Shown: positions 1,924 through 45,202, counted from the stretch's first letter. The stretch is 64,000 bases of DNA from an uncultured Bacteroidales bacterium (GCA_963732365.1 CAVSZC010000001.1:354526-418525); one strand, 5' to 3'. Program-made: numbers and translations. Notes: generated by a model from the sequence alone, not told the origin.

Positions 1924-2799
1924 ATGAAATCAACCGCAACACTGTTACTAATAGCCGCCCTGGGGCTGGCTGCATTCAAATCTGACAAACCGGCTTACGC
2001 CCTTTATGATAATGAAGGCAAAAAGGTGAAGTATGATAAGATGATTGAGAACATCAGTAAAACTGACGTTGTCTTCTTCGGAGAGCTTCATGACAACCCT
2101 ATCTCACACTGGCTTGAATATGAGGTAACGGCAGACCTGCATGAGGTGGTCGGAGAAAGGCTTGTGCTGGGAGCAGAGATGTTTGAGGCTGACAATCAAC
2201 TCCTTATCGATGAATATCTCTCGAAGGCTTACGAGGCTGACAAGTTCGAAGCGGAAGTAAAACTCTGGAAAAACTATAAGACAGATTACAAACCTCTTGT
2301 AGAGTTTGCACGAAAAAATAACCTTCCCTTTATAGCCACCAACGTCCCGAGGAGGTATGCCTCAATCGTCTCGAAGAAAGGACTTGAATCGCTTGATTCA
2401 CTGCCTGATGAGTCAAAGAGGTTTATTGCCCCCCTGCCGATCAATTATGATCCGGAGGTAAGGAGCTATAAGGATATGATGCAGATGACCGGGATGCCGG
2501 GTATGGGTGGCAAGGTCAACGAGAATTTCCCCAAGGCCCAGGCAATCAAGGACGCCACCATGGCCCATTTTATCCTTAAAAACCTTGAAGCAGGCAGGGT
2601 ATTCATTCACTATAACGGTTCATTCCATTCGGACAATTACTCCGGCATTATCCATTATCTTAAAAGGGAGAGGCCTGAGATCAAAGTTTCAACCATTACA
2701 ACGGTATTGCAGGCTGACACAGACAGTCTCAAGGCTGAATATCTGAATACTGCAGACTACATTATTGTTGTGCCGGAGACGATGACGAGGACCTATTGA
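1924..2799 (+). CDS. ChaN-family (heme/cofactor-binding, iron-regulated) exported protein
   Basis: Signal peptide; DVVFFGELHDNP, LGAEMFE, YKPLVEFA, ATNVPRRYAS, QAIKDATMA and HYNGSFHS motifs. Confidence 0.82.
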   Translation: MKSTATLLLIAALGLAAFKSDKPAYALYDNEGKKVKYDKMIENISKTDVVFFGELHDNPISHWLEYEVTADLHEVVGERLVLGAEMFEADNQLLIDEYLSKAYEADKFEAEVKLWKNYKTDYKPLVEFARKNNLPFIATNVPRRYASIVSKKGLESLDSLPDESKRFIAPLPINYDPEVRSYKDMMQMTGMPGMGGKVNENFPKAQAIKDATMAHFILKNLEAGRVFIHYNGSFHSDNYSGIIHYLKRERPEIKVSTITTVLQADTDSLKAEYLNTADYIIVVPETMTRTY

Positions 2800-2832
2800 A
2801 TTAAGAATTAAGAATTAAGAATTGAGAATTAA
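2798..2832. repeat. Heptamer tandem array (GAATTAA)x5, one variant GAATTGA
   Basis: Read directly; overlaps the ChaN stop codon. Confidence 0.95.
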
Positions 2833-2850
2833 GAGGTAGGGAGTATCAAT

Positions 2851-2890
2851 AAAAAACTGCCCTGGGCGAAGTGCCAGGGCAGTTTTATTT
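2851..2890. terminator. Bidirectional intrinsic terminator between ChaN and susD
   Basis: AAAACTGCCCTGG-gcgaagtg-CCAGGGCAGTTTT hairpin with A and T tracts, between convergent genes. Confidence 0.85.
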
Positions 2891-2908
2891 AATACAGGCT
2901 AAAATACC

Positions 2909-4639
2909 TTACGGTTTTGAGAACCATAATTTGGTATTCATAGCGTCAGCTCCCTGGCGTCCAATTGCAGTAGTCAGGTTTGCTCCGTTCTTGCTGTATG
3001 CACCGGAACCGTACTGCATCCTTTCAGGATAGAGTCCGTTGATAGAACCAAGACCGTAGATATCAGCGTCAGTGACACCTGCTGCCAGGCTTGCCGGGTA
3101 GCCGGTCTTCCTGACGATTGCCCATCCTTCGAACCCTTCAGTATAAGAGTTAATCCATTTCTGTGTGGCAATCTTCTCCAGTTTCTCTGCAGATGTGCCG
3201 GTGGAAATGCTGGCTATCGGTTTGGCAAGGTAGGTAGTGATGTCACCTTCAGCGCATCCCCACATCCGCATAGAGTATCTGATACCATCCTGGAAAGCTG
3301 CGTTTGCATCACCGGTTGCTCCGGAAATACCTTTTACGATAGCTTCAGCCTTAAGGAAGTATGCTTCAGCAGTGGTAAGGACTATCTCCTTGTAAATATT
3401 GGAGCCTGTTCCCTTCTTTGCAATGAAGAAATCAGTAGGTGTGCTGAAGAATGCCCTGCGTATCAGAGGCTTGATGAACCCGTTAAGTCTTACAGGCTGC
3501 CCGACATAGTTCTTATTCGGAGCCATCGAGAAGGTTACAGACTCATCAGTGACTTCATTTCCGGTTTTTGTGAAGTCAGCACCCGCAGCGGTCAGAACGT
3601 CGTAAAGATAATCGACTCTCTTTGGCCACAGATCCCTGTCAGTACCTGATGCCGGTTTTGTGAATGTAAAGGTACCGCCGAAGGCAGGTCTCGCAAACTT
3701 GGGAAGCCTCGGGTCTCCGTTATTACGAAGGTAATCAACCATTGGCTGGCTTACCGTGAATCCGCCGCCGCTCGACTCGAGTGAGCCAAAGTCAAGATAT
3801 GCTCCGGCATATGAGTCGCTGTTCCACTTGCTTATGACATTATCCTTGGTTATCAGGACATCATCTGTTGCAGTGCTCAGTAAAGGAGCTCCGAAACACT
3901 GAGAAACTGTAGCAGCGGCAAAGTCATCGCCTGTTGCACCGTAGGCACGAAGGGCAATGCGAAGCTTCAGCGTATTCGCCAGCCTTTTCCATTTCTGAAG
4001 GTCGCCGCCACAATAAAGGTCATTTGCGCCGAGATCTTCCACGCCGTCACCGGTCTTGAGGCTGCTGCCTATAGTGGTCATTGCGGCGTTCAGATCGGCA
4101 ATTATGCCTTTATAGATTGATATCTGCGTATCGTACTTGGGAAGAACAATGTCAGGATCTCCAGCCTCTGAATATGGAATTTCGCCAAAAGTTTCCGTAT
4201 ACATCTGGTAATATAATCCCTTCATTATCAACCCGACCGCATACATCAGCTCATTCTCGAAGTCACCCCCTGTGCCTGTCAGCTTCAGGAAGTTGTCAAG
4301 ATAGCCGAAGTATCCTTCATAGAAATCCCAGGTGGCATCGGTATATGAAGCGCTGTAGGCATAGCTCAGCTCGTCAGACCACCATGAATAGTTGTCACCG
4401 AAGGTATAATAACCGGCAAACCGGTCAGCATGTATCAGCATTGCCCTCCAGTAGGGATAGTTGTCCGGAGCATAAAGCTTGTACTGAGGCACAGTGATGA
4501 AGTACCTTGCACTTGCTTCGTCCGCTGTGATTGCATTGGGGTCTTTGTTTATATCCTCAAAATCTTTGGTACAACCAGCGAGGCCCGCAGCAATCAGTAT
4601 GATTATGAATAAATATTTGTATGATTTCATAATTCTCAT
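2909..4639 (-). CDS. susD: SusD/RagB-family outer-membrane lipoprotein
   Basis: Lipobox LAGC followed by TKDFEDINKDPN; FGEIPYSEA, KWKRLANTLKLRIALR, EKIATQKWI and KLWF terminus; directly downstream of susC. Start may be 4630. Confidence 0.93.
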   Translation of the reverse strand: MRIMKSYKYLFIIILIAAGLAGCTKDFEDINKDPNAITADEASARYFITVPQYKLYAPDNYPYWRAMLIHADRFAGYYTFGDNYSWWSDELSYAYSASYTDATWDFYEGYFGYLDNFLKLTGTGGDFENELMYAVGLIMKGLYYQMYTETFGEIPYSEAGDPDIVLPKYDTQISIYKGIIADLNAAMTTIGSSLKTGDGVEDLGANDLYCGGDLQKWKRLANTLKLRIALRAYGATGDDFAAATVSQCFGAPLLSTATDDVLITKDNVISKWNSDSYAGAYLDFGSLESSGGGFTVSQPMVDYLRNNGDPRLPKFARPAFGGTFTFTKPASGTDRDLWPKRVDYLYDVLTAAGADFTKTGNEVTDESVTFSMAPNKNYVGQPVRLNGFIKPLIRRAFFSTPTDFFIAKKGTGSNIYKEIVLTTAEAYFLKAEAIVKGISGATGDANAAFQDGIRYSMRMWGCAEGDITTYLAKPIASISTGTSAEKLEKIATQKWINSYTEGFEGWAIVRKTGYPASLAAGVTDADIYGLGSINGLYPERMQYGSGAYSKNGANLTTAIGRQGADAMNTKLWFSKP

Positions 4640-4649
4640 ATTTTGCTAT

Positions 4650-7600
4650 TTAGAATTTGACGCTTACATTGAACCCAACGCTTCGGGTAGTTGGCATGGT
4701 ATAGAAGAGGACACCCTGGGCAAAGTTACTTACGCTGAAGCTTCCTTCAGGATCGAAGTTATCTATTGCCCTGTAGATGAAGAAGAGATTCCTTCCGGTA
4801 ACACCGACTGAGAGTCCTTTGATGAAAGTCTTCTCAAGCATGGTCCTAGGGAGATTATAAGTAAGAGCAAGCTCCCTCAGCCTGATGTTGGTCTGATCAT
4901 AGATGTAGTTTGAGGCAATGCTTGAGTACGATCCCCAGTAGGTGCCTGCATTGATCTGAGCAGTATTCGTTGCTCCGTCAGTTCTTACACCGTCAATAAC
5001 CACACCTCCTTCGCGATACTTAAGAGTCCGTTCCGAGGTACCATTAGCATCCATACCTGCATCTGTGCCGGAATATACTTCTCCGCCGAATCTTCCGTCG
5101 ATGAGGAACCTGAGGGCAAAATTACCATAGGTGAAGGTATTGGTCATACCACCTACCCAGTCAGGCTGGTAGTTACCCACCAGTATCTTCTCAGATGCGG
5201 CAAGATATCTTCCGGTATTGTCAACAACGATGTTTCCTTCATCATCTTTCTGATATGTGTTGGCATAGATGTCGCCATAGCCGCCGCCAACTTCAGCAAC
5301 GACCTCAACGGTACCTGAATTGGTGGTTGTGAATATATACCTGTCAACACCCTCGATAAGTTTTACCAGTTCGTTCCTGTTGGTAGACATGTTGAAAGAG
5401 ATATCCCATTCTAGCTTGCCATTCTGTACCGGTATACCTCCGAACAGTATCTCGAAGCCCTTATTGGTCATCTCGCCTACGTTTGTTCTTTCATAGCTGT
5501 AGCCGGTCGAGGCAGGAATGGGGACATCCATAATCAGGTCCTTTGAGACAATGCTGTAGAATGAAAGGTCGGTATAGATCCTGTTGTTCAGGAATCTGAA
5601 TTCGCCACCGAACTCAAGAGAGCTCGTCTGCTCTGGCTTCAGTCCCGGGTTCTTTCTTGTACTTGGCCTGGTGAGTATTGTAAGGCCAAGATAACTGTCG
5701 CTGGCTGATGAGAGGTCGAATGAATTCTGCAACTGGTAAGGGCTTGTGTCATTACCTACCTTGGCCCAGTTAACCCTGATCTTGGCGAAGTCAACACCCG
5801 TTATGTCAAGGAGCTCATTCAGAAGAACCGATCCGCTTACTGACGGGTAGAAATAAGACCAGTTGTCAGAAGGAAGGGTTGAAGACCAGTCATTACGTCC
5901 GGATGCTTCAAGATAGAGGAAATTATTGTAGCTCAGCTGGATGTTACCGTAGACCGAGTTGATCATTTTTTCCTGCAACGGGCTGTAACCCGGCGAGTTT
6001 GAAGAAGCACTCGCGAGGGTCGGCTTGGTCGGGATCTTGAAGTTCTCGGCAAATATGCTCATCCCTTCATAGGTCTGATACATATGGTTGGCACCAAGGT
6101 TTGCCATGATATTGATCTTCGAGGTGATGTCCTTGTTAAACATTATAAGACCGTCTATGTTGGTCTCAGAGGTTGCCTGTGTACTTACGTTAAGACGACC
6201 GCCGGGGTAGAACCAGTGTCCATACTGTTTAATGTTTTCAATCCCCTGGGTTACCGCATCAGTACCTACTCTGAAGAAAACTGACAGCCAGTCAGTGAAT
6301 TCATAGTTACCTTTGACATAACCCTGTATCCTGCTCCTGCTGTCATCGTTGACGTCATGAAGCTGATACCAGTATGGGTTACCTGTCGATCCTGACGTGT
6401 ATGTCCTGACAGAATAAGTTGCAGGATCCTGGTAGTCCTTCAGGTCATCAATTATTGTGTTCCTCGGTATGTTATAGAGGTAAGCCATGACACCCTCGGT
6501 TCCCATAATAGGACGGTTATGTGAATTCTGAATGAAGTATGTAACCTTTGCGTCAATGCTGAACTTGTCTGTAAGGTTTGTCATACCCCTCAGGTTAAAG
6601 TTATGCCTTGACAGGTCAGAACCGGGAACTAATGAGTTAGCAGTTGTATTTGTGTATGAGAACCTAAAGCTTGACTGTTCATTTCCGCCGTCAAATGCCA
6701 GGTTGTGAGTGTAGGTCTGGCCCGTCTCAAAATAGTTCTTGACGTTATCCGGCTGAGGTGAATAGGTCTCAGGCTCCGGATCCCACAGGTCATTCCAGTA
6801 GGGTTTTACCGAACCGTCCATTTTAGCGCCCCATGATCCACCAGATGCGCGGAGGTCAGTTACGCTTGCCGGAACGTTTCCGCCGGTACCCTGGCCGTAT
6901 TCATTCTGATAGGTAGGAAGGAGCATCGGCGTCTCAAAGGTATAGTTGCCTGTGTATGTCACTCCCAGTCCTCTTCCGGCTGCACCTTTCTTGGTTGTAA
7001 TAAGGATTACACCGTTTGCAGCTCTTGCACCGTAAAGTGCGGCGGCGTTAGGGCCTTTAAGGATAGACATTGATTCAATGTCATCAGAGCTGATGTCGGA
7101 AATACCGGAGCCATAGTCTGACTTTGAGTATTCACCGGCATTGGCCGAGCTGGCAGAACCGTAGCCTGTGTTGTCCATCGGGATGCCGTCAACAACATAA
7201 AGGGGCTGGTTGTTCCCCGTTATGGAGTTGTTACCCCTGATGATGACCCTCGAGCTTGAGCCGGGGCCGAATGTACCCTGTGTCACCACAACACCGGATA
7301 CGCGCCCGGAGAGTGTATTGACAACGTTCAGGTCACGCACCAGGGCAACATCTGACCCGGAGACCTCAGTCACGGCATAACCGAGTGACTTCTTCTCCCT
7401 GGAGATACCCAGCGCGGTCACGACAACCTCATCCATCATTGTGGTGAGTGGCGCCATAACCACGTTGATCACCCTCTGGTTCTGTACCGTAAACTCCTGG
7501 GGCTCCATTCCCATAAATGAGAACGCAAGTACTGAGTTTTGTGGTACCGTAATGGAATATTTTCCATTTGTGTCAGTTACAACTCCGTTTACGGTCCCTT

Positions 7601-7754: not shown

Positions 7755-7798
7755 AGGCTGGTTTTTGGGTTGGTTATTAATAATTTATCAAAGACATG

Positions 7799-7824
7799 CA
7801 TCTGTCCCCCTATAAGGACAGATG
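7799..7824. promoter_or_regulatory. Inverted repeat in the susC leader (operator or RNA hairpin)
   Basis: CATCTGTCC-ccctataa-GGACAGATG, perfect 9-bp arms, about 45 nt upstream of the susC start, no U-tract. Confidence 0.4.
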
Positions 7825-7914
7825 AAATGATCTTTGAAACGCCAATTTAGAATAAATTTTGAAGATTGTCAATGATAAGTGGTAAAAACCGGAAAAATAA
7901 TTAGGAATAACGCT

Positions 7915-8874: not shown

Positions 8875-8904
8875 TGGGTATTAAGAACTTTATTAGAGAT
8901 ACAG

Positions 8905-8936
8905 GGTTATCGGTTATCAGTTATCGGTTATCGGTA
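8905..8936. repeat. Heptamer tandem array (GGTTATC)x4.5 abutting the IS
   Basis: GGTTATC GGTTATC AGTTATC GGTTATC GGTA. Confidence 0.95.
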
Positions 8937-8945
8937 AGTCAATGC

Positions 8946-9791
8946 CTAAATAACGTTGACCTTTTTTTGATTGATTTTACTTCTTTTTTTATTGATATGA
9001 TTGACTGTTGATAACGGGAGATAACCGAAAGAGTTATCCTCGTTATCAATAGTTTTTTTAAACTCAACTGGAGATAGTTTACCCAATGCCCTGTGTGGCT
9101 TACCAGTATTGTACATTAATACTGCCTTGTCTAGCAGCCTCTTAAGGGAACTCATATTAGTAGGGCCATATGGATAAAGATAATTGTTTTTAATAATGCC
9201 ATTAAGCCTCTCAGCGTGCGCATTCTCATAAACCTTTTCCTCGGTCATGGAGTTGACCATCTGAAGTTCTTTTGTAAGTGCTTTAAATTCTTTGCAATAA
9301 TACTGCCCACCGCCGTCTGAGTGAAGAATGGCGCCATTTATATTGGCTCTGCCTCGTACATTGACCAACTTGTGCAAAGCAGGTATTGTTGTGCTCTCTG
9401 TACGCAAATTGTCGCTCTCCGACCAACCAACTATCTCCCGGTTAAATAAGTCCGTGATAAAAGTAAGATAACAGGTTCTGGAGCCCATATCATAGTAAGT
9501 TATGTCACTTACAAAAACCTGGTTGACACCTGTAACCTCCAACTCCTTTATCAGGTTAGGAAAACGGGTTACGCCAAGACTGTTGGTCGTAATTCTGTAA
9601 TTCCTTAATTGCTTCAGCCTGTAGCCTGAGTCCATGCAGAAGCGCTCGAACCGATCACGACCCATGCAGCTGGGCTGCAACTTGAGATAAATATCCCTGG
9701 CGCACATACGGGGATGATCCCTGCGGATCTCATTTATCAGCGGGATCAACTGCTCCTGCTCTTCAAGCTTATATTTACGACGCTGCAGCAT
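8946..9791 (-). CDS. IS3-family transposase OrfB (DDE integrase core)
   Basis: NQVFVSDITY, ILHSDGGGQY, ENAHAERLNGIIK and YNTGKPHRALG motifs. The frame stays open upstream to the A9 run. Confidence 0.95.
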   Translation of the reverse strand: MLQRRKYKLEEQEQLIPLINEIRRDHPRMCARDIYLKLQPSCMGRDRFERFCMDSGYRLKQLRNYRITTNSLGVTRFPNLIKELEVTGVNQVFVSDITYYDMGSRTCYLTFITDLFNREIVGWSESDNLRTESTTIPALHKLVNVRGRANINGAILHSDGGGQYYCKEFKALTKELQMVNSMTEEKVYENAHAERLNGIIKNNYLYPYGPTNMSSLKRLLDKAVLMYNTGKPHRALGKLSPVEFKKTIDNEDNSFGYLPLSTVNHINKKRSKINQKKVNVI

Positions 9792-9838
9792 CTGATGAAA
9801 GGATTGTTTACTTATGCCAACTACTTCAAACAGACTGT

Positions 9839-10264
9839 TTAACTTTTTTCTGTGCTCTTCCCGGTTGAAGTAGTACCAGACGAGAGCCTGGAACCTACTT
9901 TTTTTTTGATATCCACTCCATAAGTAGCCTCCGCTATCTCTATCATCTTGTCCTTAAACTCCAGCAATAATTGCTTTTGTCCAACGATACGCTCAAGCTC
10001 TTTTATCCGCTCTTCCAGAGCCTTGATCTTTTGGGTGTCGCTCTTGGCTTCTACCACTTGTTTTACTTGTTTCTTTGCCATTACCGAATATTTATAGATC
10101 CATTTATACACCGCAGTTCTGCTGACTGAATAGGTCCTGCAAATATCGGGAATGCTTGTAACTCTTCTTTCTAATTCCCTGACTTTGTTTCTTTTGAAAT
10201 CATCACTAAAATACCTTTGATACTGAGGCTTAATCTGGTGATCGAAATAACTTACATTTGCCAT
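9839..10264 (-). CDS. IS3-family transposase OrfA (HTH)
   Basis: FSDDFKRNKV...YSVSRTAVYKW HTH, followed by a leucine-zipper-like segment LEERIKELERIVG. ATG at 10264 preferred because TTG 10288 lies within the IR. Confidence 0.9.
   Translation of the reverse strand: MANVSYFDHQIKPQYQRYFSDDFKRNKVRELERRVTSIPDICRTYSVSRTAVYKWIYKYSVMAKKQVKQVVEAKSDTQKIKALEERIKELERIVGQKQLLLEFKDKMIEIAEATYGVDIKKKVGSRLSSGTTSTGKSTEKS
9899..9907 (-). other. Programmed -1 frameshift site (A9) joining OrfA and OrfB
   Basis: Minus strand reads ATC AAA AAA AAA GTA. The -1 frame reads KKSRFQALVWYYFNREEHRKKLNSLFEVVGISKQSFHQMLQR without a stop into OrfB. Confidence 0.75.
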
Positions 10265-10315
10265 ACTGTTATCCGTTTTTTCGGTCAACGTATTTCAGGC
10301 ACCGACAGTAACTTT

Positions 10316-10350
10316 GTCTTCCGTCTTCCGTCTTCGGTCTTCGGTCTTCG
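10316..10350. repeat. Heptamer tandem array (GTCTTCS)x5
   Basis: GTCTTCC x2 then GTCTTCG x3; begins 4 nt after the nagD stop on the minus strand. Confidence 0.95.
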
Positions 10351-10354
10351 ATTG

Positions 10355-11146
10355 TTATTGGATCAGGTCGGCTACCCCTTCGAGGATATAGGTTGGGCGG
10401 TAGGGGAACTTGTCGACGGTTTTAAGGGTTGAGATGCCTGTCAGTACAAGGAGAGTATCAATCTCAGATTCGATACCTGCTATGATATCGGTATCCATCC
10501 TGTCACCGATAATGATGGTTTCCTCCGTAGAACATCCGATCTTTTTGAGTGCAATGCGCATCATGAGCGGATTGGGTTTTCCGACATAATAAGCCTGCCG
10601 GCCGGTGGCCAGCTCTATTGGCGAAACAAGGGCTTTTGTGGCAGGGATTATGCCGTTCTCAACCGGTCCTGTGACATCAGGGTTGGTTCCTATCAGCTTG
10701 GCCCCTTTAAGCACCAGGTTCACAGCCTGCTCCAGCTTCTCAAAACTGTAGCTCCTCGTATCTCCGACAACTACATAGTCAGGGTTATAGTTATTCATTG
10801 AATACCCGGCATTGTACATGGCGTTGATCAGCCCGGCCTCACCTATGATATATGCTGTCCCCCCGGGCTTCTGCATGGCAAGGAAATTTGCCGTAGCCAG
10901 TGCGCTTGTGTAAAAAACATTTTCGTCAAGATCGATTCCAAGACGGAACATCTTTTCCTGCAGCTCCTTGGCGGTTCTTTCACTTGAATTGGTGAGGAAC
11001 AGAAACTTTTTATCCTCACGCTTGAGCCATTCGACAAACTCAGGGACACCGGGCAGCAGTTTGTTGCCGTGGTAAATGACTCCGTCCATGTCGCTGATGA
11101 AGGCCTTCTTGCTCTTTATCTTTTCGATTATCTCTTTGTTTTTCAT
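10355..11146 (-). CDS. nagD: HAD-IIA hydrolase, NagD-like phosphatase
   Basis: DMDGVIYHG, LTNSS, IGTNPD, YVGKPNP and IGDRMDTDI motifs. Confidence 0.9.
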   Translation of the reverse strand: MKNKEIIEKIKSKKAFISDMDGVIYHGNKLLPGVPEFVEWLKREDKKFLFLTNSSERTAKELQEKMFRLGIDLDENVFYTSALATANFLAMQKPGGTAYIIGEAGLINAMYNAGYSMNNYNPDYVVVGDTRSYSFEKLEQAVNLVLKGAKLIGTNPDVTGPVENGIIPATKALVSPIELATGRQAYYVGKPNPLMMRIALKKIGCSTEETIIIGDRMDTDIIAGIESEIDTLLVLTGISTLKTVDKFPYRPTYILEGVADLIQ

Positions 11147-11164
11147 TTTATATCAAATGTGAAG

Positions 11165-15182: not shown

Positions 15183-16739
15183 ATGGATGTTAACGGGAAA
15201 TATTTCAAATCATACCTTGAGCGTGAGGAGGCATTCAGGCAGCAGTACAATGCCGACCGCATCAGGAAACAGCACGCCAAGGGCAAGCTGACAGCTCATG
15301 AGAGGATTGCCCTTCTCTTTGATTCAGGTACATTTGAGGAGATAGATGCCTACGTGACCCCCTCAGACCAGGGTGTTGAGTTCGGGAAGGTTGAGATGTC
15401 ATACGGCGACGGCGTTGTTACCGGGCATGGCAAGATTGACGGCAGGCTGGTGTTCGCATATGCCCAGGACTTTACAATAATGGGCGGTTCGCTGGGTATC
15501 GTCCATGCCCGTAAGATTGCCAAGATACAGGAGATGGCGCTCAAGATGGGTGCTCCCATAATAGGTATAAATGACTCCGGAGGTGCACGCATACAGGAGG
15601 GCATTGCAAGTCTTAACGGTTATGGCATCATCTTCAATAACATAATACAGTCTTCAGGTATCATACCTCAGATCTCCGTTATCATGGGTCCGGCCGCGGG
15701 CGGTGCTGTATATGCTCCTGCCCTCACTGACTGGGTCTTCATGACCAGCCATACAAGTTATATGTTTGTTACCGGTCCGAATGTTGTCAGGGAGGTGCTG
15801 AATGAGGATATCAGCAGCGAGGATCTGGGAGGGGCAGAAACACATGCGCGCAAGAGCGGAGTGGCCAACATGATCTACGATGATGAGGAGAACACTATCA
15901 TTGCATTGAGAAAATTCCTCTCTTACCTGCCCTCAAACAATCTCGAGAACCCCCCTGTCGCTGCCTATGACAACAATACCGCAGACGTTAATGAAAAGCT
16001 CCGCGATATTGTTCCTGATGATCCGAACAAGGCATATGATGTGCGTGATATCATCTCACTCATTGTTGACCGGAACAGCTTCTTCGAGACATCGGAGCTC
16101 TTCGCTCCGAATATTGTTACCGGTTTCGGGCGGATGGAGGGCAAGACGATAGGTATTGTTGCCAACCAGCCCAAAGTGCTTGCGGGAGTTCTCGACATCG
16201 ACTCGTCAACCAAGGGTGCACGCTTCATCAGGTTCTGTGACGTATTTAACATCCCGATACTCACCCTGGAAGATGTTCCGGGCTTCCTTCCCGGAAAAGA
16301 CCAGGAGCATTCAGGTATCATAAGGCATGGGGCCAAGCTTCTCTTTGCCTATGCCGAAGCAACAGTACCACGCATAACCGTCATCCTTCGCAAGGCCTAC
16401 GGCGGCGCTTATATTGTCATGAACAGCCGAAGCATGGGAGGTGACTTCAACTTTGCCTGGCCATCGGCCGAGATAGCCGTGATGGGGCCTGACGGCGCTG
16501 TGGCAATACTATACCGACGTGAGCTGGCAGATGCGAAGGACCCTGTGGCAATGAAGAAAGAACTCGTCAAGCGGTACCGGGAGAAAGTTGCCAATCCGTT
16601 CATCGCCGATGAAAAGGGGTACATTGATGAGGTAATTGATCCGGCAATGACACGGAAGAAGCTGTTATCAGCCTTCGCAGCATTGAGTAACAAGTCAGTC
16701 AAGGTACCGTCAAGAAAGCATGGGAATATGCCGTTATAG
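15183..16739 (+). CDS. pccB: Acyl-CoA carboxylase, carboxyltransferase (beta) subunit
   Basis: QHAKGKLTAHERI, DSGGARIQEG, DVPGFLPG, RKAYGGAY and RKHGNMPL motifs. Confidence 0.92.
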   Translation: MDVNGKYFKSYLEREEAFRQQYNADRIRKQHAKGKLTAHERIALLFDSGTFEEIDAYVTPSDQGVEFGKVEMSYGDGVVTGHGKIDGRLVFAYAQDFTIMGGSLGIVHARKIAKIQEMALKMGAPIIGINDSGGARIQEGIASLNGYGIIFNNIIQSSGIIPQISVIMGPAAGGAVYAPALTDWVFMTSHTSYMFVTGPNVVREVLNEDISSEDLGGAETHARKSGVANMIYDDEENTIIALRKFLSYLPSNNLENPPVAAYDNNTADVNEKLRDIVPDDPNKAYDVRDIISLIVDRNSFFETSELFAPNIVTGFGRMEGKTIGIVANQPKVLAGVLDIDSSTKGARFIRFCDVFNIPILTLEDVPGFLPGKDQEHSGIIRHGAKLLFAYAEATVPRITVILRKAYGGAYIVMNSRSMGGDFNFAWPSAEIAVMGPDGAVAILYRRELADAKDPVAMKKELVKRYREKVANPFIADEKGYIDEVIDPAMTRKKLLSAFAALSNKSVKVPSRKHGNMPL

Positions 16740-16802
16740 CAAGGAGCAAGGGGCATGGGGCATGGAGCAGGCAATAGGCAATAGGCAATAGGCAGTAAGC
16801 AG
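16740..16802. repeat. Nine-unit heptamer array with drifting unit
   Basis: CAAGGAG CAAGGGG CATGGGG CATGGAG CAGGCAA TAGGCAA TAGGCAA TAGGCAG TAAGCAG; starts at the base after the pccB stop. Confidence 0.92.
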
Positions 16803-16827
16803 TAGTGGTTATCAATTATATAAACTC

Positions 16828-16886
16828 CAGACCTTCAGACTTCAGACCTTCAGACTTTAGACCTTAGACCTTCAGACATCAGACCA
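16828..16886. repeat. 7-8 nt tandem array (CAGAC(C)TT)x8
   Basis: CAGACCTT CAGACTT CAGACCTT CAGACTTT AGACCTT AGACCTT CAGACAT CAGACCA; ends 6 nt before the accC start. Confidence 0.92.
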
Positions 16887-22397: not shown

Positions 22398-22919
22398 ATG
22401 AAGAAACTGTTACTTGCAATGATACTTTTTGTACCTGTCCTGATGGCAAAAGGACAGGAAACACAGGTAAAATGGTATTCGATAGAGGAAGCTGCAGCCC
22501 TGGCGCTGACCAGTCCGCGACCTATTTTTGTTGACGCCTATACTGACTGGTGCGGGTGGTGCAAGAAACTTGACAAGGACACATTTTCGCACCCTGTGAT
22601 AGCAGAGATACTGAACACGAAGTATTATGCAGTTAAGTTTGATGCAGAATCAACAGAACCGGTGACTTTCCAGGGAAGGAAATTCGTCAATGATGGTAAG
22701 ATGGGAAAAACGCATCAGCTTGCCTATGCTCTTCTTCAGGGCAATCTCGGTTATCCGACTGTAGTCTTCCTTACAGCCAACAGTGAACTTATCACTCCTG
22801 TTTCGGGCTACAAGACCCCCAAAGATATTGAGCCGATGCTTGTCTATTTCAGCGGCACATTATGGCAGTCACAGAGTTACGCGGACTTTGTGAAGACATT
22901 CCAGGGGAAGGCGCAGTAG
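22398..22919 (+). CDS. Exported thioredoxin-family protein (DUF255-like)
   Basis: Signal peptide, YTDWCGWCK and GYPT cis-Pro motif. Confidence 0.9.
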   Translation: MKKLLLAMILFVPVLMAKGQETQVKWYSIEEAAALALTSPRPIFVDAYTDWCGWCKKLDKDTFSHPVIAEILNTKYYAVKFDAESTEPVTFQGRKFVNDGKMGKTHQLAYALLQGNLGYPTVVFLTANSELITPVSGYKTPKDIEPMLVYFSGTLWQSQSYADFVKTFQGKAQ

Positions 22920-22920: not shown

Positions 22921-22934
22921 GTCTTCCGTCTTCC
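22921..22934. repeat. Minimal heptamer array (GTCTTCC)x2 filling the gap between convergent genes
   Basis: Same unit, and same orientation relative to a minus-strand stop, as 10316-10350. Confidence 0.65.
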
Positions 22935-37184: not shown

Positions 37185-37188
37185 TGTT

Positions 37189-40500: not shown

Positions 40501-40615
40501 TAAGATCTCCCTGAATAAAGAGATAAATATACGAATTCATATCAAATTCAGGCGGTCAGACTTTGGCATTCTATTTGCGACAATTTTTGTTTATCTTGCT
40601 TCACTTTAAGAAGGT

Positions 40616-43600
40616 ATGAGGGTAATCAACAGAGCTATTGTTCTGCTGGCTTTTGCTGTTGCTGCAACCGGCCTGCTTAAGGCACAGGTTTCGGCTCGTG
40701 AAAGTATGGTTCCGGGGGCTGAACTGAGGCCGGAGTCACCTAACCGTGATCAAGGTATCACCTATCGCAACGGCAATCCCAGGCTGAAGAAGTCATCCGA
40801 TCCTTCCGGAAGATATTTCAGAATCTCTTTGCCGGGTCACCATTTCACTAGTGAAACAGGGAAGCCGGAACTGCCGGTATACAGTCGTCTGATAGAGGTG
40901 CCCCGCGGCATGGAAGTCCGGGTTCATATCTCTGATGTTGTGACAAGGCGGGTACACTTTTCTGACCACGGACTAAGGGGCTCTCAGATCTATCCGTCAC
41001 AGCCTGCCAGGACAAAAAACCAGCCTCCTGATGAAAAGGTTGTAATCAAGGACAAGAAGACGTACGAAACAAGAGGCATTATATCGCATGACACGGTAGT
41101 GATAAAAAGGGAAGGGATATTCAGGGGAAGGGAGCTTTATAACATAGCCCTGTATCCGGCATTCTACGACCCTTCCGGAGGGTATGTTGACCTGATCACA
41201 TCAATGAATGTTGAAATAACTCAATCGCCTTCAGAGACCAAGGGTGACGGCACCTTCCCTCCTGCCGGGGAGAAAGGAGGATTTGCATCTGAGGCGTACA
41301 TCACCGGTTATACTGACGAACCGGTGACCATGATCATTGTGACAGACTCCGTCTTCATAAAACACCTGCAGCCGCTCATAAGATGGAAGACTCTGAAAGG
41401 AATTAATACCACTGTTCTGTATAAGGGGCCCGGGTCACCCGACACGGTCTACAATGACCTTAAGAGAAGGATAACATCATTTTATTCCAGTGCAGTTGAA
41501 GCAGGCAATCCTCCGCAGTATCTGCTCATTGTTGGCGATCTTTCGAAAATACCCGCCTCACGGGGTACAGGAAATGTCTCTGACCTCTATTACGGTGAGT
41601 TTGACGGTGAGGGTGACTACATCCCGGAGCTGTTCATTGGACGCCTTCCGGTCAGTGACACCACCCAGCTCAAGGGAATGGTCAGGAAAATCATTGACTA
41701 TGAGAGCTATGCGTTTGAAGCAGGGAATAAATTCTGGTCTGGCGCGGTGGCAACGGCAGGAAATGACCAGAGCTACGAGAAATATATGAACGGCCAGATA
41801 GGGTATGTATTTGATGAATACCTGAGCCGGGATACATCCCTGAAGGCTTTTCACTGGCTCTATCCCGAAGCGTCACAGAAGGATGATTCCCTTAAGTTGC
41901 TTTTCAACAAAGGGCTGAGCATTCTTAATTATACGGGACACGGTGAGGCTAACGGATTCAGTGACCCGACCTTCAAAACAACAGATGTCAGCGGGCTCAC
42001 AAACATTAACATGTATCCGCTCATTATTTCCAATGCATGCCGTACTGCCCAGATAAATGTAGCTTCATGTTTCGGGTCAGCAATGGTAAATGCAGTGGAT
42101 AAGGGAGCGGTTGGCTTTATCGGATGTACCAACGATTCGTTCTGGGCTGATGATTTCTACTGGTCTGTAGGCCCCGGAACACCTGATACTACAGCGACCT
42201 ACAGCAACACAGGAACAGGAGCCTTTGACAGATTGTTTCACACCCATGACGAGGCACCGGGAGAGTGGTATTATACGATGGGACAGATCAACTTCGCCGG
42301 CAATATGGCTGTCTCAGCAAGCACCAGCTCCAGAAAGAAGTACTACTGGGAAACCTATATGCTTCTTGGGGACCCATCCCTTTCACCAATGATAGGAAGG
42401 CCTGACCGTTTCGAGATAACTGTACCTGATGTTTTGCCCCAGACATTGACTTCCCTTAACTTTTTCTCCAGCCCCTTCTCATATGCAGCAATCACCAATT
42501 TCGATACTCTGTGGGACGCGAGATTTATAAGCCCGTCAGGCAACGTATCACTTGAAATACCGGAAGGGATCAAAGACTCATGCCTCCTGATAGTCACAGG
42601 GCAGAATATGATACCCTTCAGAAAGACATTACGCTTCGGTTCAGTTTCCGGTCCGTTTCTCACAACAGAGAGCATCGTGCTCGATGACTCACAGGGCAAT
42701 AACAACGGTCTTCCCGACTACGGAGAAAAAATTAACCTCAGGGTCACCATCAAGAACCTGGGCAACGGAGTCTCCTCAAACCTGAATGCAGATATATCTG
42801 CCGTTGCAGGAATGATAACAGTTGAACAGGCCATGACATCCCTGGGTGATCTCGCGCCAGGTGAATCATATACTATTGATAACGCATTCATCTTCAGCAT
42901 ATCAGACGAAGCAGAGGATGGCGAAATCGCCTCTCTGCTTCTCACCCTTACCGACAACGGGAATGAGTATCTCTTCGGTTTGGACATGACAATACTGGCT
43001 CCCGATGTCAGAATAATATCATCGGTTCATGATGATAATGATACCGGCAACTCAAATTACCTGCCCGATCCGGGAGAAACGGTAAAAATCAATGTCAGAG
43101 TCAAAAATGAAGGTTCATCAGCGACAAGCGGTACGCTCTCGGTCATCGCTCCTGCCCCATGGCTTACACTGGACTCTGAGGAAATAGCCACGGGCATTCT
43201 TGACCCGGGTGTTGAAAAGGTCCTCAGCCTTGAGGCGGTGATTTCAGATTTTGCCTTACCGGGTACCGAAATCGGTTATGACGTCGCGCTTGTATGCGGA
43301 AAATATGAGGCGTCGGATTCCTACTCAATCAGAACAGGCAAGACCCGTGAGACATGGGAGTTTGACAGGTTTGATGTTTTTCCCTGGATACAGGAGAAGG
43401 ATTTTCCCTGGACAATATCTGCTTCAACATCCTTTGAAAACGTGCGGTCAGCCCGCTCAGGCAATATTCCGGACAAGGATGAGACTGTGCTGGCTATCTA
43501 TGTAAATAACCCGGTAAGTGATACCGTCTCATTTTATTCTATGGTATCGTCTGAGTTTAATTATGACGAGTTTATATTCAGAATTGACAGTGTCACCGAC

Positions 43601-44359
43601 CTGCAGATATCAGGTGAGACACCGTGGGATCTCAGGCAGGCAATTCTCAAACCCGGAGTACATTATCTCGAATGGATATACAGAAAGGATGTCTCACTGT
43701 CAGGGGGGCTTGATGCGGCATGGATAGATGAGATCACCTTCCCCGACATATCCTTTCTCGAGGCTGACTTGCAAATTGACACGGTCTTTGCACCCCCTGC
43801 CAGTGCAGATCTGAACAGCGTTGTCATCAAAGGCAGTGTCGTCAATCTTGGGCGAAATACCCTGACCAGTTTCCCTCTTGCATACAGGATAAATGACGGC
43901 GAGGCCGTAAACGAGACATTCGGCCTCAAGATCGATCCGGGCGATACTGTCAATGTAACTTTCAGCCAGACCTGCAAGCTGCTGCCTGAAACGAGCTATC
44001 GCATTTACATTATCAGCCGCCTGCCTGAAGACGGTTACTCAGGCAACGATACCGCATACACTACCTTTATTAAAACAGACATTGATGTTCCTCAGATAAC
44101 CGAGGGGAGCGTCAGATTGATGCCTAATCCCTTCATTGACAGCTTCATTCTTGAAATTGATGCTGAGGGCGAAGAGAGCGCAGAGATTCAATTTCTTGAC
44201 ATTCAGGGACGTGCCGTGCTACGGTTGAGCGAAGGGCTGATGCCGGGCACCAACAGGATTACTGTATCGTGCCGGCATCTGCAGGCAGGTACATATACCC
44301 TTCGTATTAGTGTCGGTGGAAAAGTGGGGATGATCAGGGCGGTTAAGGGAGGCAATTAG
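40616..44359 (+). CDS. C25 (gingipain-family) cysteine peptidase with propeptide, Ig-like domains and T9SS C-terminal domain
   Basis: GKPELPV propeptide; YLLIVGD, SDLYY, IGRLP, NYTGHG (catalytic His), NACRT (catalytic Cys) and LLGDP; C-terminal MPNPF...DIQGR...LQAGTYTLRI...VK. Confidence 0.9.
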   Translation: MRVINRAIVLLAFAVAATGLLKAQVSARESMVPGAELRPESPNRDQGITYRNGNPRLKKSSDPSGRYFRISLPGHHFTSETGKPELPVYSRLIEVPRGMEVRVHISDVVTRRVHFSDHGLRGSQIYPSQPARTKNQPPDEKVVIKDKKTYETRGIISHDTVVIKREGIFRGRELYNIALYPAFYDPSGGYVDLITSMNVEITQSPSETKGDGTFPPAGEKGGFASEAYITGYTDEPVTMIIVTDSVFIKHLQPLIRWKTLKGINTTVLYKGPGSPDTVYNDLKRRITSFYSSAVEAGNPPQYLLIVGDLSKIPASRGTGNVSDLYYGEFDGEGDYIPELFIGRLPVSDTTQLKGMVRKIIDYESYAFEAGNKFWSGAVATAGNDQSYEKYMNGQIGYVFDEYLSRDTSLKAFHWLYPEASQKDDSLKLLFNKGLSILNYTGHGEANGFSDPTFKTTDVSGLTNINMYPLIISNACRTAQINVASCFGSAMVNAVDKGAVGFIGCTNDSFWADDFYWSVGPGTPDTTATYSNTGTGAFDRLFHTHDEAPGEWYYTMGQINFAGNMAVSASTSSRKKYYWETYMLLGDPSLSPMIGRPDRFEITVPDVLPQTLTSLNFFSSPFSYAAITNFDTLWDARFISPSGNVSLEIPEGIKDSCLLIVTGQNMIPFRKTLRFGSVSGPFLTTESIVLDDSQGNNNGLPDYGEKINLRVTIKNLGNGVSSNLNADISAVAGMITVEQAMTSLGDLAPGESYTIDNAFIFSISDEAEDGEIASLLLTLTDNGNEYLFGLDMTILAPDVRIISSVHDDNDTGNSNYLPDPGETVKINVRVKNEGSSATSGTLSVIAPAPWLTLDSEEIATGILDPGVEKVLSLEAVISDFALPGTEIGYDVALVCGKYEASDSYSIRTGKTRETWEFDRFDVFPWIQEKDFPWTISASTSFENVRSARSGNIPDKDETVLAIYVNNPVSDTVSFYSMVSSEFNYDEFIFRIDSVTDLQISGETPWDLRQAILKPGVHYLEWIYRKDVSLSGGLDAAWIDEITFPDISFLEADLQIDTVFAPPASADLNSVVIKGSVVNLGRNTLTSFPLAYRINDGEAVNETFGLKIDPGDTVNVTFSQTCKLLPETSYRIYIISRLPEDGYSGNDTAYTTFIKTDIDVPQITEGSVRLMPNPFIDSFILEIDAEGEESAEIQFLDIQGRAVLRLSEGLMPGTNRITVSCRHLQAGTYTLRISVGGKVGMIRAVKGGN

Positions 44360-44394
44360 GAGGTAAGAGTTAAAAATTAAGAATTAAGAATTTA
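44360..44394. repeat. Degenerate heptamer array of the GAATTAA family (x5)
   Basis: GAGGTAA GAGTTAA AAATTAA GAATTAA GAATTTA; starts at the base after the stop codon. Confidence 0.8.
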
Positions 44395-44448
44395 AGGTTG
44401 TAGTATAATAGGATCTCAGCGAGTAAATAACGGGCAAAATCAGGATGT

Positions 44449-45024
44449 ATGTCAAAGACTAAGCCAACGCGTGAAGAAGGGCTGGAACTTTTCAGGAAGT
44501 ACAACAAGTCAGAGAGCCTCTACAGGCATGCACTCTCGGTAGAGGCCGTGATGCGTTATATGGCACGGAAAAACGGTGAAGACGAGGAGATGTGGGGTGT
44601 CATAGGACTCATACATGATCTTGACTACGAGATGTACCCTGAACAGCACTGCAGGATGACCGAAGTGATAATGAGAGAAGAGGGATGGCCCGAGGAATAT
44701 ATCAGGGCTGTCATAAGCCACGGCTATGGCATCTGTTCAGATGCACAGCCACAGACTCTTCTTGAAAAGACTCTTTACGCCATCGATGAACTGACAGGCC
44801 TGGTCACCACCAGCGCTCTTGTACGGCCGTCAAGAAGCGTTCTTGACATGGAGGCAAAGTCAGTGCTCAAGAAATGGAATGACCGCAAGTTTGCCGCCGG
44901 TGTTGACAGGAGCGTGATCGAAAAAGGTGCAGCCGATCTGGGTGTTGAGCTGAAAGACCTGGTAGCAGATGCAATCGCCGGCATGAGAGAGGTGGCGGAG
45001 GAGATTGGACTGAAAGGAGTATGA
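44449..45024 (+). CDS. HD/HDIG-domain metal-dependent hydrolase
   Basis: RHALSVEAVM, GLIHDLDYE, HC, SHG, DELTGL and FAAGVDRS motifs. Confidence 0.88.
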   Translation: MSKTKPTREEGLELFRKYNKSESLYRHALSVEAVMRYMARKNGEDEEMWGVIGLIHDLDYEMYPEQHCRMTEVIMREEGWPEEYIRAVISHGYGICSDAQPQTLLEKTLYAIDELTGLVTTSALVRPSRSVLDMEAKSVLKKWNDRKFAAGVDRSVIEKGAADLGVELKDLVADAIAGMREVAEEIGLKGV

Positions 45025-45202
45025 GTTTCGATTTGCGATGTGGGATGTGCGATTGATTCACAGTTGTCAGTTTTCTGTTGTCGGTTATCTGTTGTCGGTT
45101 ATCTGTTGTCGGTTATCTGTTGTCGGTTGTCTGTTATCTGTTTTCTTTGTCTTAAATCTGGATGGCATTTAAATCGAAAATCGCAAATCGCAAATCGCAA
45201 AT
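45023..45202. repeat. Tripartite heptamer locus
   Basis: GAGTTTC GATTTGC GATGTGG GATGTGC (45023-45050); 12 units of CDGTTDT including (CTGTTGT CGGTTAT)x3 (45061-45144); AAATCGA (AAATCGC)x3 AAAT (45171-45202). Confidence 0.95.

Follow-up and report, generated by a model that had tools for sequence, protein, structure and literature searches.

The window, a 64,000-nt stretch of DNA from an uncultured Bacteroidales bacterium, contains 9-11 intergenic tandem arrays with a period of 7 nt (7/8 in one case), at the places where the earlier note had reported them (Table 1). TRF returned 36 rows for the window, 13 of which have period 7; three weak period-7 rows (12158, 24982 and 45911) all lie within ORFs. 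The spacer at 22921-22934 is absent from the TRF output because its two units fall below the TRF threshold. The window arrays have 4.1-5.3 units each, except for this spacer and the nested 14-mer array. By reading, three units (GAATTAA, GTCTTCC and CGGTTAT) recur at distant loci, as had been claimed. Four loci are referred to by letter: a (the 2798 array), c (16738-16884), d (22921) and f (the 45029-45202 hairpin). G000 is the genome under study; other G and L numbers denote congener genomes and loci.

Table 1. Arrays, hairpins and insertion sequence in the window. Copy numbers follow the repeat unit.
Feature	Position	Strand	Remarks
GAATTAA array, x5.3	2798-2834		Overlaps TGA stop of ChaN-like gene (1924-2799); solo, without inverted partner
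GC hairpin, terminator-like	2853-2886	-	13 pairs, T tail; between GAATTAA array and convergent SusD-like gene
GGTTATC array, x4.4	8905-8935		Abuts left inverted repeat of IS3-family element
IS3-family insertion sequence	8936-10309	-	Flanked by two arrays; ORFs 8946-9791 (rve) and 9839-10288 (HTH_Tnp_1), Pfam
GTCTTCC/GTCTTCG array, x5.0	10316-10350		Ends 4 nt from stop of HAD-like gene (10355-11146, minus strand)
CAWGGRG array, x4.6	16738-16769	+	Directly behind TAG of carboxyltransferase gene (15183-16739)
AGGCAAT array, x5.3	16769-16805	+	TRF
Alternating 7/8-nt array (TCAGACT / TCAGACCT)	16824-16884	+	Also scored as period 15; 8 nt before biotin carboxylase start (16893)
Two GTCTTCC units	22921-22934		Whole spacer between two convergent stop codons; by reading
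Degenerate GAATTAA-type array, x4.1	44364-44392	+	Behind TAG of C25 peptidase gene (40616-44359)
Left hairpin arm, degenerate GCGATTT type, x3.6	45029-45053	+	4 nt past TGA of HD-domain gene (44449-45024); inverted score 15.5
(GTTGTCGGTTATCT) array, x6.4, period 14	45063-45152	+	In loop of heptamer-armed hairpin; nested module
Right hairpin arm, AAATCGC, x4.6	45171-45202	+	Inverted score 16.5
GC-rich hairpin	45208-45237		Common to two convergent genes; terminator-like by fold only; whole stretch z -3.08

Each locus was claimed to have an array beginning within 0-4 nt of a stop codon. This spacing was found at 2798 (overlapping the TGA), 16738 (0 nt), 22921 (1 nt), 44360 (0-4 nt), 45029 (4 nt) and 10350 (4 nt); it fails for 8905-8935, where the gap to the stop codon of the IS3 transposase is 10 nt. 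The claim that arrays of other periods are lacking is correct for the window and incorrect for the genome, where the family includes modules of period 8, some of period 6, and modules of periods 9 and 12.

At locus a, the spacer 2800-2908 folds with an MFE z of -3.84, and the hairpin beyond the GAATTAA array places the array in a 3' untranslated stretch. The IS3-family element has a 24-nt terminal inverted repeat (8938-8961 / 10283-10306), and a second copy (G000 C1:136668-138071) is 99.8% identical to it. GGTTATC is found at the corresponding end of both copies, with 4.4 units in the window and 6.6 in the second copy. At locus f, the left arm pairs with 45178-45196 in the fold, and 45029-45053 / 45171-45202 is the only inverted pair in the window. 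A consensus terminator scan called no terminator-like site at 45208-45237. A CRISPR array was rejected, as the 7-8 nt units lie head to tail without spacers and no cas domains were found in the 18 window proteins scanned. A 23S rRNA intervening sequence was also rejected, as neither an Rfam family nor a tRNA was found in the window.

The earlier note had proposed that period, distance to stop codons and strand be compared over the whole genome. Period 7 is in excess, with 111 of 241 tandem arrays at a TRF score of at least 50 (none of period 5, 14 of period 6, 19 of period 8 and 8 of period 9) and 367 of 1410 at a score of at least 30. Among 200 period-7 arrays with scores of at least 40, 75% lie outside crude ORF calls, which cover ~91% of the genome. 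In their above-chance frequency and mostly non-coding position, the arrays are long simple sequence repeats in the sense of tandem 5-11 nt units. Their sizes show no monotonic decay. The mode is 4-5 units, with 4.0-4.9 copies in 87 and 28-35 nt in 94 of 238 period-7 arrays.

The modules prefer the 3' ends of genes, directly behind stop codons. The gap on the stop side is at most 4 nt at 65 of 214 flanks, compared with 34.8 +/- 3.6 expected under uniform placement, so the anchoring reported for the window holds for the genome. On the start side such gaps occur at 16 of 168 flanks, where distances are unreliable because the gene calls are crude longest ORFs. Among spacers of at least 40 nt, arrays are present in 44/197 convergent, 115/983 co-directional and 23/373 divergent ones. 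Anchoring to stop codons would also be expected from insertion into spacers originally 10-30 nt long and bounded by selection on coding sequence. A strand bias relative to transcription was not found among 164 co-directional cases, in which the four units with the most arrays gave ratios of 11:7, 5:8, 7:2 and 3:4. An inverted partner lies within 700 nt of 26 of 264 arrays and a direct partner of 13, compared with 14 in a null that uses the flanks of another array; ~90% of the arrays of the genome are solo.

The heptamer tracts beside genes for four-helix-bundle (IVS-protein-like) proteins that the earlier note mentioned are real in this genus. At 30 genus loci with PF05635 (TIGR02436) genes, arrays of period 6-8 are present on both sides in 23, on one side in 4 and on neither in 3. 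All eight PF05635 genes of G000 have an array within 120 nt on at least one side, and four have arrays on both; the corresponding flanking count for all crude genes in G000 is 30/3106. Across phyla, 80 PF05635 loci have arrays on both sides in 42 cases, on one side in 26 and on neither in 12, and 89 of the 124 flanking arrays have period 7. Control ORFs have arrays on both sides in 4 of 412 cases. The match of the upstream flank to the reverse-complemented downstream flank reaches at least 14 in 40 of 79 PF05635 loci, compared with 1.5% for mismatched loci. We found a link between the arrays and PF05635 genes in no paper.

The arm units of congener PF05635 genes are the units of the window, a sharing that connects two long-unexplained features of bacterial DNA, the heptamer arrays and the four-helix-bundle gene that they bracket. 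GAATTAA is the arm unit in L108, L110, L121 and L122, and AGGCAAT in L093, L095, L097, L098 and L105. GTCTTCC/GTCTTCG arms the cassettes at G000 C4:183909-184262 and L104, AAATCGC arms those in L112-L114, and the 7/8 array at 16824-16884 is of the unit type of the L120 arms. The (GTTGTCGGTTATCT) array shares its unit type with the arms of G000 C5:966179-966556 and L109. The window arrays thus have the unit identity and the length (~4-5 units) of PF05635 cassette arms; an inverted partner is present for one pair only, and no gene lies between arms. None of the eight PF05635 genes of G000 is inside the window, none of 53 PF05635 matches in 25 congeners is on a contig syntenic with it, and no gene was found in any congener in the orthologous spacers of the five window loci checked.

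The units of the genome fall into 58 types, of which the three most frequent occupy 25, 21 and 16 loci. AAATCGC is the commonest (25 arrays), the canonical CAWGGRG unit is third (16 arrays), and TAACTGA forms 3 arrays. When arrays at the genome's own PF05635 genes are set aside, 91 of the remaining 236 carry exactly an arm unit of a congener PF05635 gene, compared with 4.5 +/- 2.1 (maximum 13) for letter-shuffled units. By type, 13 of 89 units match congener arms against 0.9 expected. In the window, the exact match holds for 4 of 9 listed arrays, and the AGGCAAT, 7/8 and 14-mer arrays match by reading. Combinations of neighbouring arrays recur in 13 pairs (2.2 +/- 2.0 expected). Word families expand lineage-specifically: AAATCGC x3 yields between 0 and 121 hits in a congener, with hits in 20/25. 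It turned up in 1 of the 80 genera examined elsewhere in the order, and across all 106 genomes searched from the order the word is otherwise restricted to this genus. That random slippage does not explain this shared vocabulary, as the earlier note held, is borne out by these counts and also by the modal size.

Orthologous spacers, counted with G000 included, come from congeners, which are kin and for the most part draft MAGs, whose assemblies are broken by repeats. Of the 22 genus loci compared for locus c, 18 carry an array, in 15 cases with its start no more than 10 nt past the stop, and 10 different first units occur; a unit family related to AGGCAAT is seen by reading in many of the 22. 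At locus d an array is present in 12 of 23 loci with 8 different first units, and at locus f in 6 of 12. At locus a, TRF finds an array past the stop in 4 of 19 loci, and by reading G015 and G010 have GAATTAA there. One spacer carries different words of the vocabulary in different species. Some relatives have short or empty spacers at the corresponding places, such as G033 with its array-free spacer of ~10 nt at locus c, and compared with these the modules are additional DNA. In the closest congener (L082), the spacer behind the C25 peptidase gene is 19 nt, with 2.9 units of a word related to the GAATTAA type. The locus-f hairpin occurs without insert in L085, L088 and, in reverse orientation, L086. 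The (GTTGTCGGTTATCT) module is not in the congeners' locus-f hairpins, and the GC-rich hairpin at 45208-45237 is conserved in L085, L087 and L088. Filled and empty alleles, which a cassette-mobility system was predicted to leave, exist for PF05635 cassettes in the genus (sites A-E); no filled allele was found at the window's own loci.

Copy number shifts by whole units. Between assembled contigs, which were the basis of the comparison among samples, indels of 14-16 nt correspond to two repeat units: one RNA-library contig lacks 14 nt at 16762 (CAWGGRG array), and contigs of other samples show a 15-nt indel (16828) and an additional 16 nt (16878) in the 7/8 array. The RNA-library contig of a relative passes 22919 into a period-8 array. 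Whole-unit indels and an excess of period 7 would also be yielded by plain slippage, an observation that speaks against reading the arrays as modules.

A dedicated repeat-generating or repeat-binding system, also suggested in the earlier note, was not found: no candidate enzyme was identified in the genome, whose one RT is DRT4-like and lies beside PglZ. REP/BIME elements with a RAYT were rejected, since none of 5 Y1_Tnp hits has arrays of period 6-8 within 1.2 kb.

With moderate confidence we interpret the arrays as inserted, DNA-level repeat modules that are spread through the genus, belong to the family of cassette arms and are tuned by slippage. Each module would repeat one word ~4-5 times, over 28-35 nt; the word, of 7 nt or sometimes of 6, 8, 9 or 12 nt, would belong to a vocabulary that is heritable and specific to the lineage. 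The same modules, in opposed pairs, would be those that enclose small four-helix-bundle genes (PF05635/TIGR02436) of a kind known from intervening sequences of 23S rRNA. The modules may spread between loci by copying of DNA, and as the route we tentatively prefer short-homology recombination or gene conversion together with template switching between arrays. The four-helix-bundle gene and its own leader would be a passenger between two modules, in which case gene-less pairs and solo arrays are potential landing pads and not only scars. Replication slippage would adjust copy number afterwards. The position behind stop codons may be set mainly by selection, as neither coding sequence nor the last 15-30 nt upstream of a start codon would be open to invasion.

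It is unlikely that every array is a scar. On that view each started out in a mobile cassette, as one of two inverted arms around a four-helix-bundle gene, and gene-less hairpins and solo arrays would be remnants after deletion of the gene and one arm. Arms and solo arrays do share units and modal length. Site E is a gene-less hairpin in G000 and contains the gene in L107 and L120, at site A two units remain of the right arm seen in the congeners, truncation or stop codons affect 5 of 61 genus PF05635 matches, and locus f is a gene-less hairpin with the arm unit of the L112-L114 cassettes. However, the ~90% of arrays that are solo would imply asymmetric deletions in the hundreds, the 8 PF05635 genes of G000 are not accompanied by further fragments of the family, and the unit of the empty G000 hairpin at site E differs from the congeners' arms. 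G005 has 121 AAATCGC hits, yet its single PF05635 gene has other arms, and the gene and leader of L120 are the same as in L107 and G000 while the arms differ. Among protein pairs with at least 70% identity, 10 of 16 have arm words in common; at 55-70% identity, 0 of 100 do. These results indicate that arms are exchangeable, and we lean towards arrays as exchangeable modules over fixed parts of a gene cassette. PF05635 copy number (0-8 per genome) does not track AAATCGC abundance, and G009, without a PF05635 match, has by reading a degenerate AGGCAAT-type run in its locus-c spacer.

Very unlikely, in our view, are functional sites kept by selection on the flanking genes, whether strand-specific binding sites or RNA structures (sites for translational regulators, RNase III stems, terminators or mRNA stabilisers). 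The arrays do fall in the transcribed part 3' of genes or in intercistronic spacers, with the stop codon on one side and a terminator-like hairpin on the other at loci a and f; RNA-library contigs cover locus c, locus f folds with the z given in Table 1, and post-transcriptional roles have been proposed for TAACTGA repeats (PMC4679880). Against this, strand bias is absent, start codons are avoided, and the orthologous spacer is empty or has unrelated units in relatives. The presence of an array does not go with better folding of a spacer (median z -0.49 with and -0.62 without arrays; z below -3 in 21/105 and 14/90), locus c has a fold z of +2.17, and arm mismatches have no RNA-strand signature (44 G.U vs 36 A.C). 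No evidence of regulation of flanking genes by the window arrays was seen.

Plain slippage, in which arrays grow in place from chance duplications through an intrinsic 7-nt preference of the polymerase and shared units are coincidence or compositional bias, is already strained and highly improbable: it fits the two-unit indels between samples, the unit differences between IS copies, and the mostly non-coding excess of 5-11 nt repeats, heptamers foremost, that was reported for many prokaryotes and explained by polymerase slippage (Mrazek 2007, via PMC4679880), whereas by itself it yields neither exact unit sharing 20-fold above the shuffled control, a genus-specific vocabulary, a size mode of 4-5 units and recurrent neighbour combinations, nor opposed arm pairs around one gene family across phyla.

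The modules resemble several known systems. TAACTGA and other heptamer direct repeats occur in Beggiatoaceae, Cyanobacteria and five Bacteroidetes; the TAACTGA word lies for the most part shortly before start codons, and translational control was proposed and a role in gene rearrangement suggested (MacGregor 2015, PMC4679880). The repeats too are intergenic and sometimes mixed with other heptamers, with shorter, repeat-free spacers in close relatives and strain indels in 7-nt steps (PMC4679880). That work follows one word, whereas here dozens of words lie mostly behind stop codons without strand bias, and sections 3 and 10 of that paper make no link to a four-helix-bundle gene (PMC4679880). 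ORF-bearing intervening sequences of 23S (in CPR also 16S) rRNA encode the 23S_rRNA_IVP/PF05635 protein; there, as here, the gene lies between complementary arms, and ORF-bearing and ORF-less forms occur at the same sites (bioRxiv 10.1101/2024.02.27.582315). The present modules differ in lying outside rRNA, between protein genes, with tandem-heptamer arms, and most arrays have neither gene nor partner arm. REP/BIME elements with RAYT (Y1) are likewise short, dispersed, intergenic, 3'-biased and piled up at some spacers, whereas here the words are tandem without a conserved palindrome and the Y1_Tnp hits have no heptamer arrays nearby. The STRR (short tandemly repeated repetitive) heptamers of heterocystous cyanobacteria, reportedly described by Mazel and co-workers in 1990, are said to be short intergenic arrays of tandem 7-nt units in several dispersed families, with a lineage-specific vocabulary and no assigned function. 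The window arrays share with them the dispersed tandem heptamers, the several unit families and the lineage-specific vocabulary; the heterocystous cyanobacterial host and the named units that are said to define STRRs are absent. The host here is one of the Bacteroidales (SusC/D, Por_Secre_tail, C25 peptidase), its units are others, and the 3' bias, the mode of 4-5 units and the identity with PF05635 arms set its arrays apart.

A wider and, as we judge it, quite unlikely possibility is that heptamer modules and PF05635 genes form one widespread, undescribed mobile system. The four-helix-bundle protein, a relative of the pentameric DGR accessory protein Avd, would bind the 4-5 words of the flanking arms, each subunit taking one word, and would help the arms and their content to be copied or exchanged. 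If so, one mechanism would underlie cyanobacterial STRRs, the bacterial heptamer excess and ORF-bearing rRNA intervening sequences.

The arrays in the window are real and exceed what chance would produce. TRF recovered those listed in the earlier note except 22921-22934, which has two units only and falls below its threshold, and reading of the sequence against the ORF list showed them to be intergenic and three units to recur at distant loci. The host genome (G000; 3.88 Mb in 9 contigs, written as C with a number; the window is C1:354526-418525) contains 1410 non-overlapping arrays, 367 of them with a period of 7. At TRF scores of at least 50 the proposed enrichment of this period is clear genome-wide (111 of 241 arrays, against 0, 14, 19 and 8 for periods 5, 6, 8 and 9, respectively), but the period is not strict, as the family also includes arrays of other periods. 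Crude gene calls, made as longest ORFs and covering about 91% of the genome, leave 75% of the 200 period-7 arrays with scores of at least 40 outside, and these 200 use 58 canonical units, the three commonest of which are found at 25, 21 and 16 loci. Array density is clumped (50-kb bins: mean 3.2, variance 17.9, maximum 28; 23 of 83 bins empty); 9 arrays were counted inside the window. One hot spot on C5 holds 28 intergenic arrays of period 6 to 8 within 50 kb, and the adjacent bins are also rich. The presence of SusC/D-type, Por_Secre_tail and C25 peptidase genes identifies the host as a member of the Bacteroidales, and the named records closest to it are MAGs of Bacteroidales and Rikenellaceae.

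These arrays are heptamer modules that resemble STRRs, here in a genus of the Bacteroidales, and they fall within the family of arrays that form the arms of PF05635 cassettes, in which a small four-helix-bundle gene lies between one arm and an inverted second arm. All eight PF05635 genes of G000, whose proteins also match TIGR02436, have arrays of period 6 to 8 within 120 nt of at least one end, and four have them at both ends; the baseline for all crude G000 genes is 30 of 3106. Within the genus, PF05635 matches number 0 to 8 per genome in 22 of 26 genomes, and among 30 such loci arrays flank the gene on both sides in 23, on one side in 4 and on neither in 3, the flanks being mostly reverse complements of one another. 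Words found in the window are the arm units of PF05635 genes at genus loci (see table). Genome-wide, the units of 91 of 236 G000 arrays match a congener arm unit exactly, compared with 4.5 ± 2.1 (maximum 13) for letter-shuffled units; a match here is of TRF consensus units in any rotation on either strand, with arrays near G000's own PF05635 genes left out. Counted as unit types, 13 of 89 equal a congener arm unit, where 0.9 is expected.

The association extends across many phyla. Eighty PF05635-type loci, all relatives of the one G000 paralogue used as query, have arrays of period 5 to 11 within about 170 nt of the gene on both sides in 42 cases, on one side in 26 and on neither in 12, and 89 of the 124 arrays have period 7. 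The upstream flank aligns with the reverse-complemented downstream flank at a score of at least 14 in 40 of 79 loci, compared with 1.5% when loci are mismatched. As a control, 4 of 412 internal ORFs at 70 loci of many phyla have arrays on both sides. Bacteroides thetaiotaomicron is another carrier of the PF05635 family.

Arrays and arms are also of the same size. The copy number of period-7 arrays peaks at 4.0 to 4.9 (87 of 238) and their length at 28 to 35 nt (94 of 238), and the counts do not simply fall off above the detection limit. A length of 28 to 35 nt is about the shortest homology for efficient RecA-dependent recombination. G000 arrays occur singly (302) or in trains of two (52), three (18), four (7) or six (1), some of which include 9- and 12-nt modules, and adjacent pairs form recurrent strand-aware combinations (13 against 2.2 ± 2.0 expected). 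In one train on C5, 12-nt and 9-10-nt tandem modules directly follow a heptamer array, and parts of this train are found again at about 12 other places in the genome.

Array-bearing spacers of the window in the genus, arm words of PF05635 genes at genus loci, and positions of other features in G000. Spacer counts are of genus loci including G000, at TRF scores of at least 24.
Feature	Location or loci	Loci with array	First array ≤10 nt after stop	Different first units (n)
Locus c	carboxyltransferase to biotin carboxylase	18/22	15	10
Locus d	after thioredoxin-like gene	12/23	8	8
Locus a	after ChaN-like gene	4/19	4	3
Locus b	after HAD-like gene	6/21	2	2
Locus f	after HD-domain gene	6/12	4	3
GAATTAA arms	L108, L110, L121, L122
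AGGCAAT arms	L093, L095, L097, L098, L105
GTCTTCC / GTCTTCG arms	L104, G000 C4:183909-184262
AAATCGC arms	L112-L114
14-mer-type arms	L109
7/8-type arms	L120
IS3 copy in the window with its array	8905-10309
Second IS3 copy	C1:136668-138085
End of HD-domain gene	window 45010-45024
Array hot spot	C5:1400000-1450000
Train with 12-nt and 9-10-nt modules	C5:1416323-1416462
Site A	C5:971991-972272
Truncated Y1_Tnp ORF site	C4:45461-46114 (L268)
PF05635 gene with conserved leader	C5:391270
Arm-to-start leader	C5:391629-391713
Cluster of PF05635 genes	C5:391-442 kb
IS256-type transposase genes	C5:442029-443240, C5:670211-671422 (L123, L124)
DRT4-like RT and PglZ locus	C5:1107033-1111738 (L265)

The earlier note had every locus carry an array within 0-4 nt of a stop codon. 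This holds at most window loci, but 10 nt separate the array at 8905-8935 from the IS3 transposase stop codon. Across the 191 array-bearing spacers of G000, 65 of 214 stop-side flanks have a gap of at most 4 nt. Placing arrays uniformly in these spacers gives 34.8 ± 3.6 such flanks, with a maximum of 48 over 1000 trials. Gaps this short occur at 16 of 168 start-side flanks; start positions, taken from longest ORFs, are unreliable. When spacers of at least 40 nt are counted, arrays are present in 44 of 197 between convergent genes, 115 of 983 between co-directional genes and 23 of 373 between divergent genes. At loci a and f a GC hairpin follows the array on the side away from the stop codon (that of f was not called by the consensus scan), which places these arrays in 3' untranslated or intercistronic DNA. 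In G000 the HD-domain protein stops about 5 residues before those of congeners (L082, L085, L087 and L088), exactly where the array begins; insertion of the array seems to have given the gene a new stop codon.

Comparison of orthologous spacers reveals presence, absence and replacement of arrays. Locus c, by reading, is a spacer of about 10 nt without an array in G033 and has the word ATTTGCG in G016; in G013 (L149) GAATTAA-type units occupy the entire spacer up to a TTG start. This apparent start of the biotin carboxylase gene sits in the last such unit. In L002, which is outside the genus set, 13.8 copies of an 8-mer fill the spacer. At locus c, assembled contigs of other samples show length differences of -14, -15 and +16 nt relative to the window, and there is also a 55-nt skip; such changes fit slippage. 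In an RNA library, a type of library that can contain DNA, the contig of a relative continues beyond the stop codon at position 22919 and enters a period-8 array. Locus f is a heptamer-armed hairpin in L085, L086 and L088; the gene-less hairpin of G000 (45029-45202) has a different word, arrayed over 90 nt, in its loop.

Filled and empty cassette sites occur elsewhere in the genome. At site A seven congener loci have a PF05635 gene, and G000 has 280 nt of arrays that include a two-unit remnant of the congeners' right arm. Site E has the gene in L107 and L120 and a gene-less hairpin of a different word in G000, and sites B to D show further differences. Two GAATTAA units after a stop codon on C4 are followed by a truncated Y1_Tnp (IS200-like) ORF at a site where four congeners have a GAATTAA-armed PF05635 gene. 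At the window's own loci no filled allele was found in congeners, and none of 53 congener PF05635 matches is on a contig syntenic with the window. The earlier suggestion of a cassette system is supported in part.

One PF05635 gene and its conserved leader have the same 8-mer arm in G000 and in L107, at chromosomal sites that differ, and other arms in L120. Of the protein pairs at least 70% identical, 10 of 16 have arm words in common, as do 0 of 100 pairs at 55-70% and 3 of 2733 below 55%, and the commonest word of G005 differs from the arm of its single PF05635 gene. These sequence comparisons suggest that gene and arms are separable, and for this reason we prefer a view in which the arrays are exchangeable modules and the gene is a passenger over one in which they are mere scars. 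The leader of about 40 nt between arm and start is about 95% conserved and the coding region about 70% (G000, L107, L120); in L107 a run of N immediately follows the arm. Five of the eight G000 genes are clustered on C5. Two G000 cassettes have an IS256-type transposase between the gene and the second arm, and the two transposase (Transposase_mut) genes have identical scores.

The abundance of a word varies among congeners. Three tandem AAATCGC units (at most one mismatch) are present in 20 of 25 congeners, with 0 to 121 matches each (G005, 121; G016, 87; G017, 78), and nearly all of these genomes lack any match to the reversed control. Of the 80 further genera of the order that were searched, one matches, with one hit. 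The 20 matches to the reversed control in G021, of another genus, point to an abundant heptamer family of its own. For this word PF05635 copy number bears no relation to array abundance among congeners. The two IS3 copies, 99.8% identical over 1404 nt, both have a GGTTATC-type array directly outside the left inverted repeat (4.4 versus 6.6 units); the element either targets such arrays or carries one. A unit-like remnant lies beyond the right end of the second copy.

The arrays were also tested for a function at the RNA or regulator level. The G000 arrays show only a mild purine excess in the transcribed orientation (99 versus 58), and only 26 of 264 have an inverted partner compared with 14 in a null that used another array's flanks. 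Common words show no strand bias relative to transcription, and array-bearing spacers in G000 are no more structured than others. G.U and A.C mismatches between arms, an asymmetry of which would indicate selection on RNA stems, number 456 versus 461 under lenient scoring (92 of 108 loci), 87 versus 83 (52 of 80), and 44 versus 36 under strict scoring (40 of 80), with no asymmetry. The strand, folding, mismatch and partner results argue against such a function. Nor is there evidence for a code by which the protein would recognize its arms across phyla, since the correlation (0.219; permuted maximum 0.070) is carried solely by close orthologues. We infer the mechanism of array spread; an origin by reverse transcriptase or by a RAYT-like Y1 transposase was rejected, as the sole RVT_1 match in G000 adjoins a PglZ gene and, like all five Y1 matches, has no arrays nearby, and no enzyme candidate emerged from these matches. 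The former is a DRT4-like RT below the NCBIfam cut-off, and its locus is probably a defence island unrelated to the arrays.

Knowledge of dispersed heptamer arrays goes back to the cyanobacterial STRRs, and we know of no accepted origin or function for them. The PF05635/TIGR02436 family is abundant and occurs in rRNA intervening sequences, and to our knowledge it has no known function. PMC4679880 describes heptamer arrays in Bacteroidetes, strains that differ by 7-nt indels and relatives whose spacers have no repeats, and cites a general heptamer excess (Mrazek 2007); three other sources place PF05635 genes within cas loci (PMC3936711), link them to CRISPR (PMC10910872) and report them in rRNA insertions of CPR bacteria (bioRxiv 10.1101/2024.02.27.582315). 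No published link between PF05635, TIGR02436 or the IVS protein and heptamer or tandem repeats was found in a search that covered mainly the main text of open-access papers. The arrays break short-read assemblies, many PF05635 matches being at contig ends, and could be taken for CRISPR-like repeats; they are also markers of fast-evolving, strain-resolving loci. In this genus heptamer arrays and PF05635 genes share their vocabulary, their module size and their sites, and both questions can thereby be tested: which words are bound by which protein, and by what route a module arrives in a new spacer.
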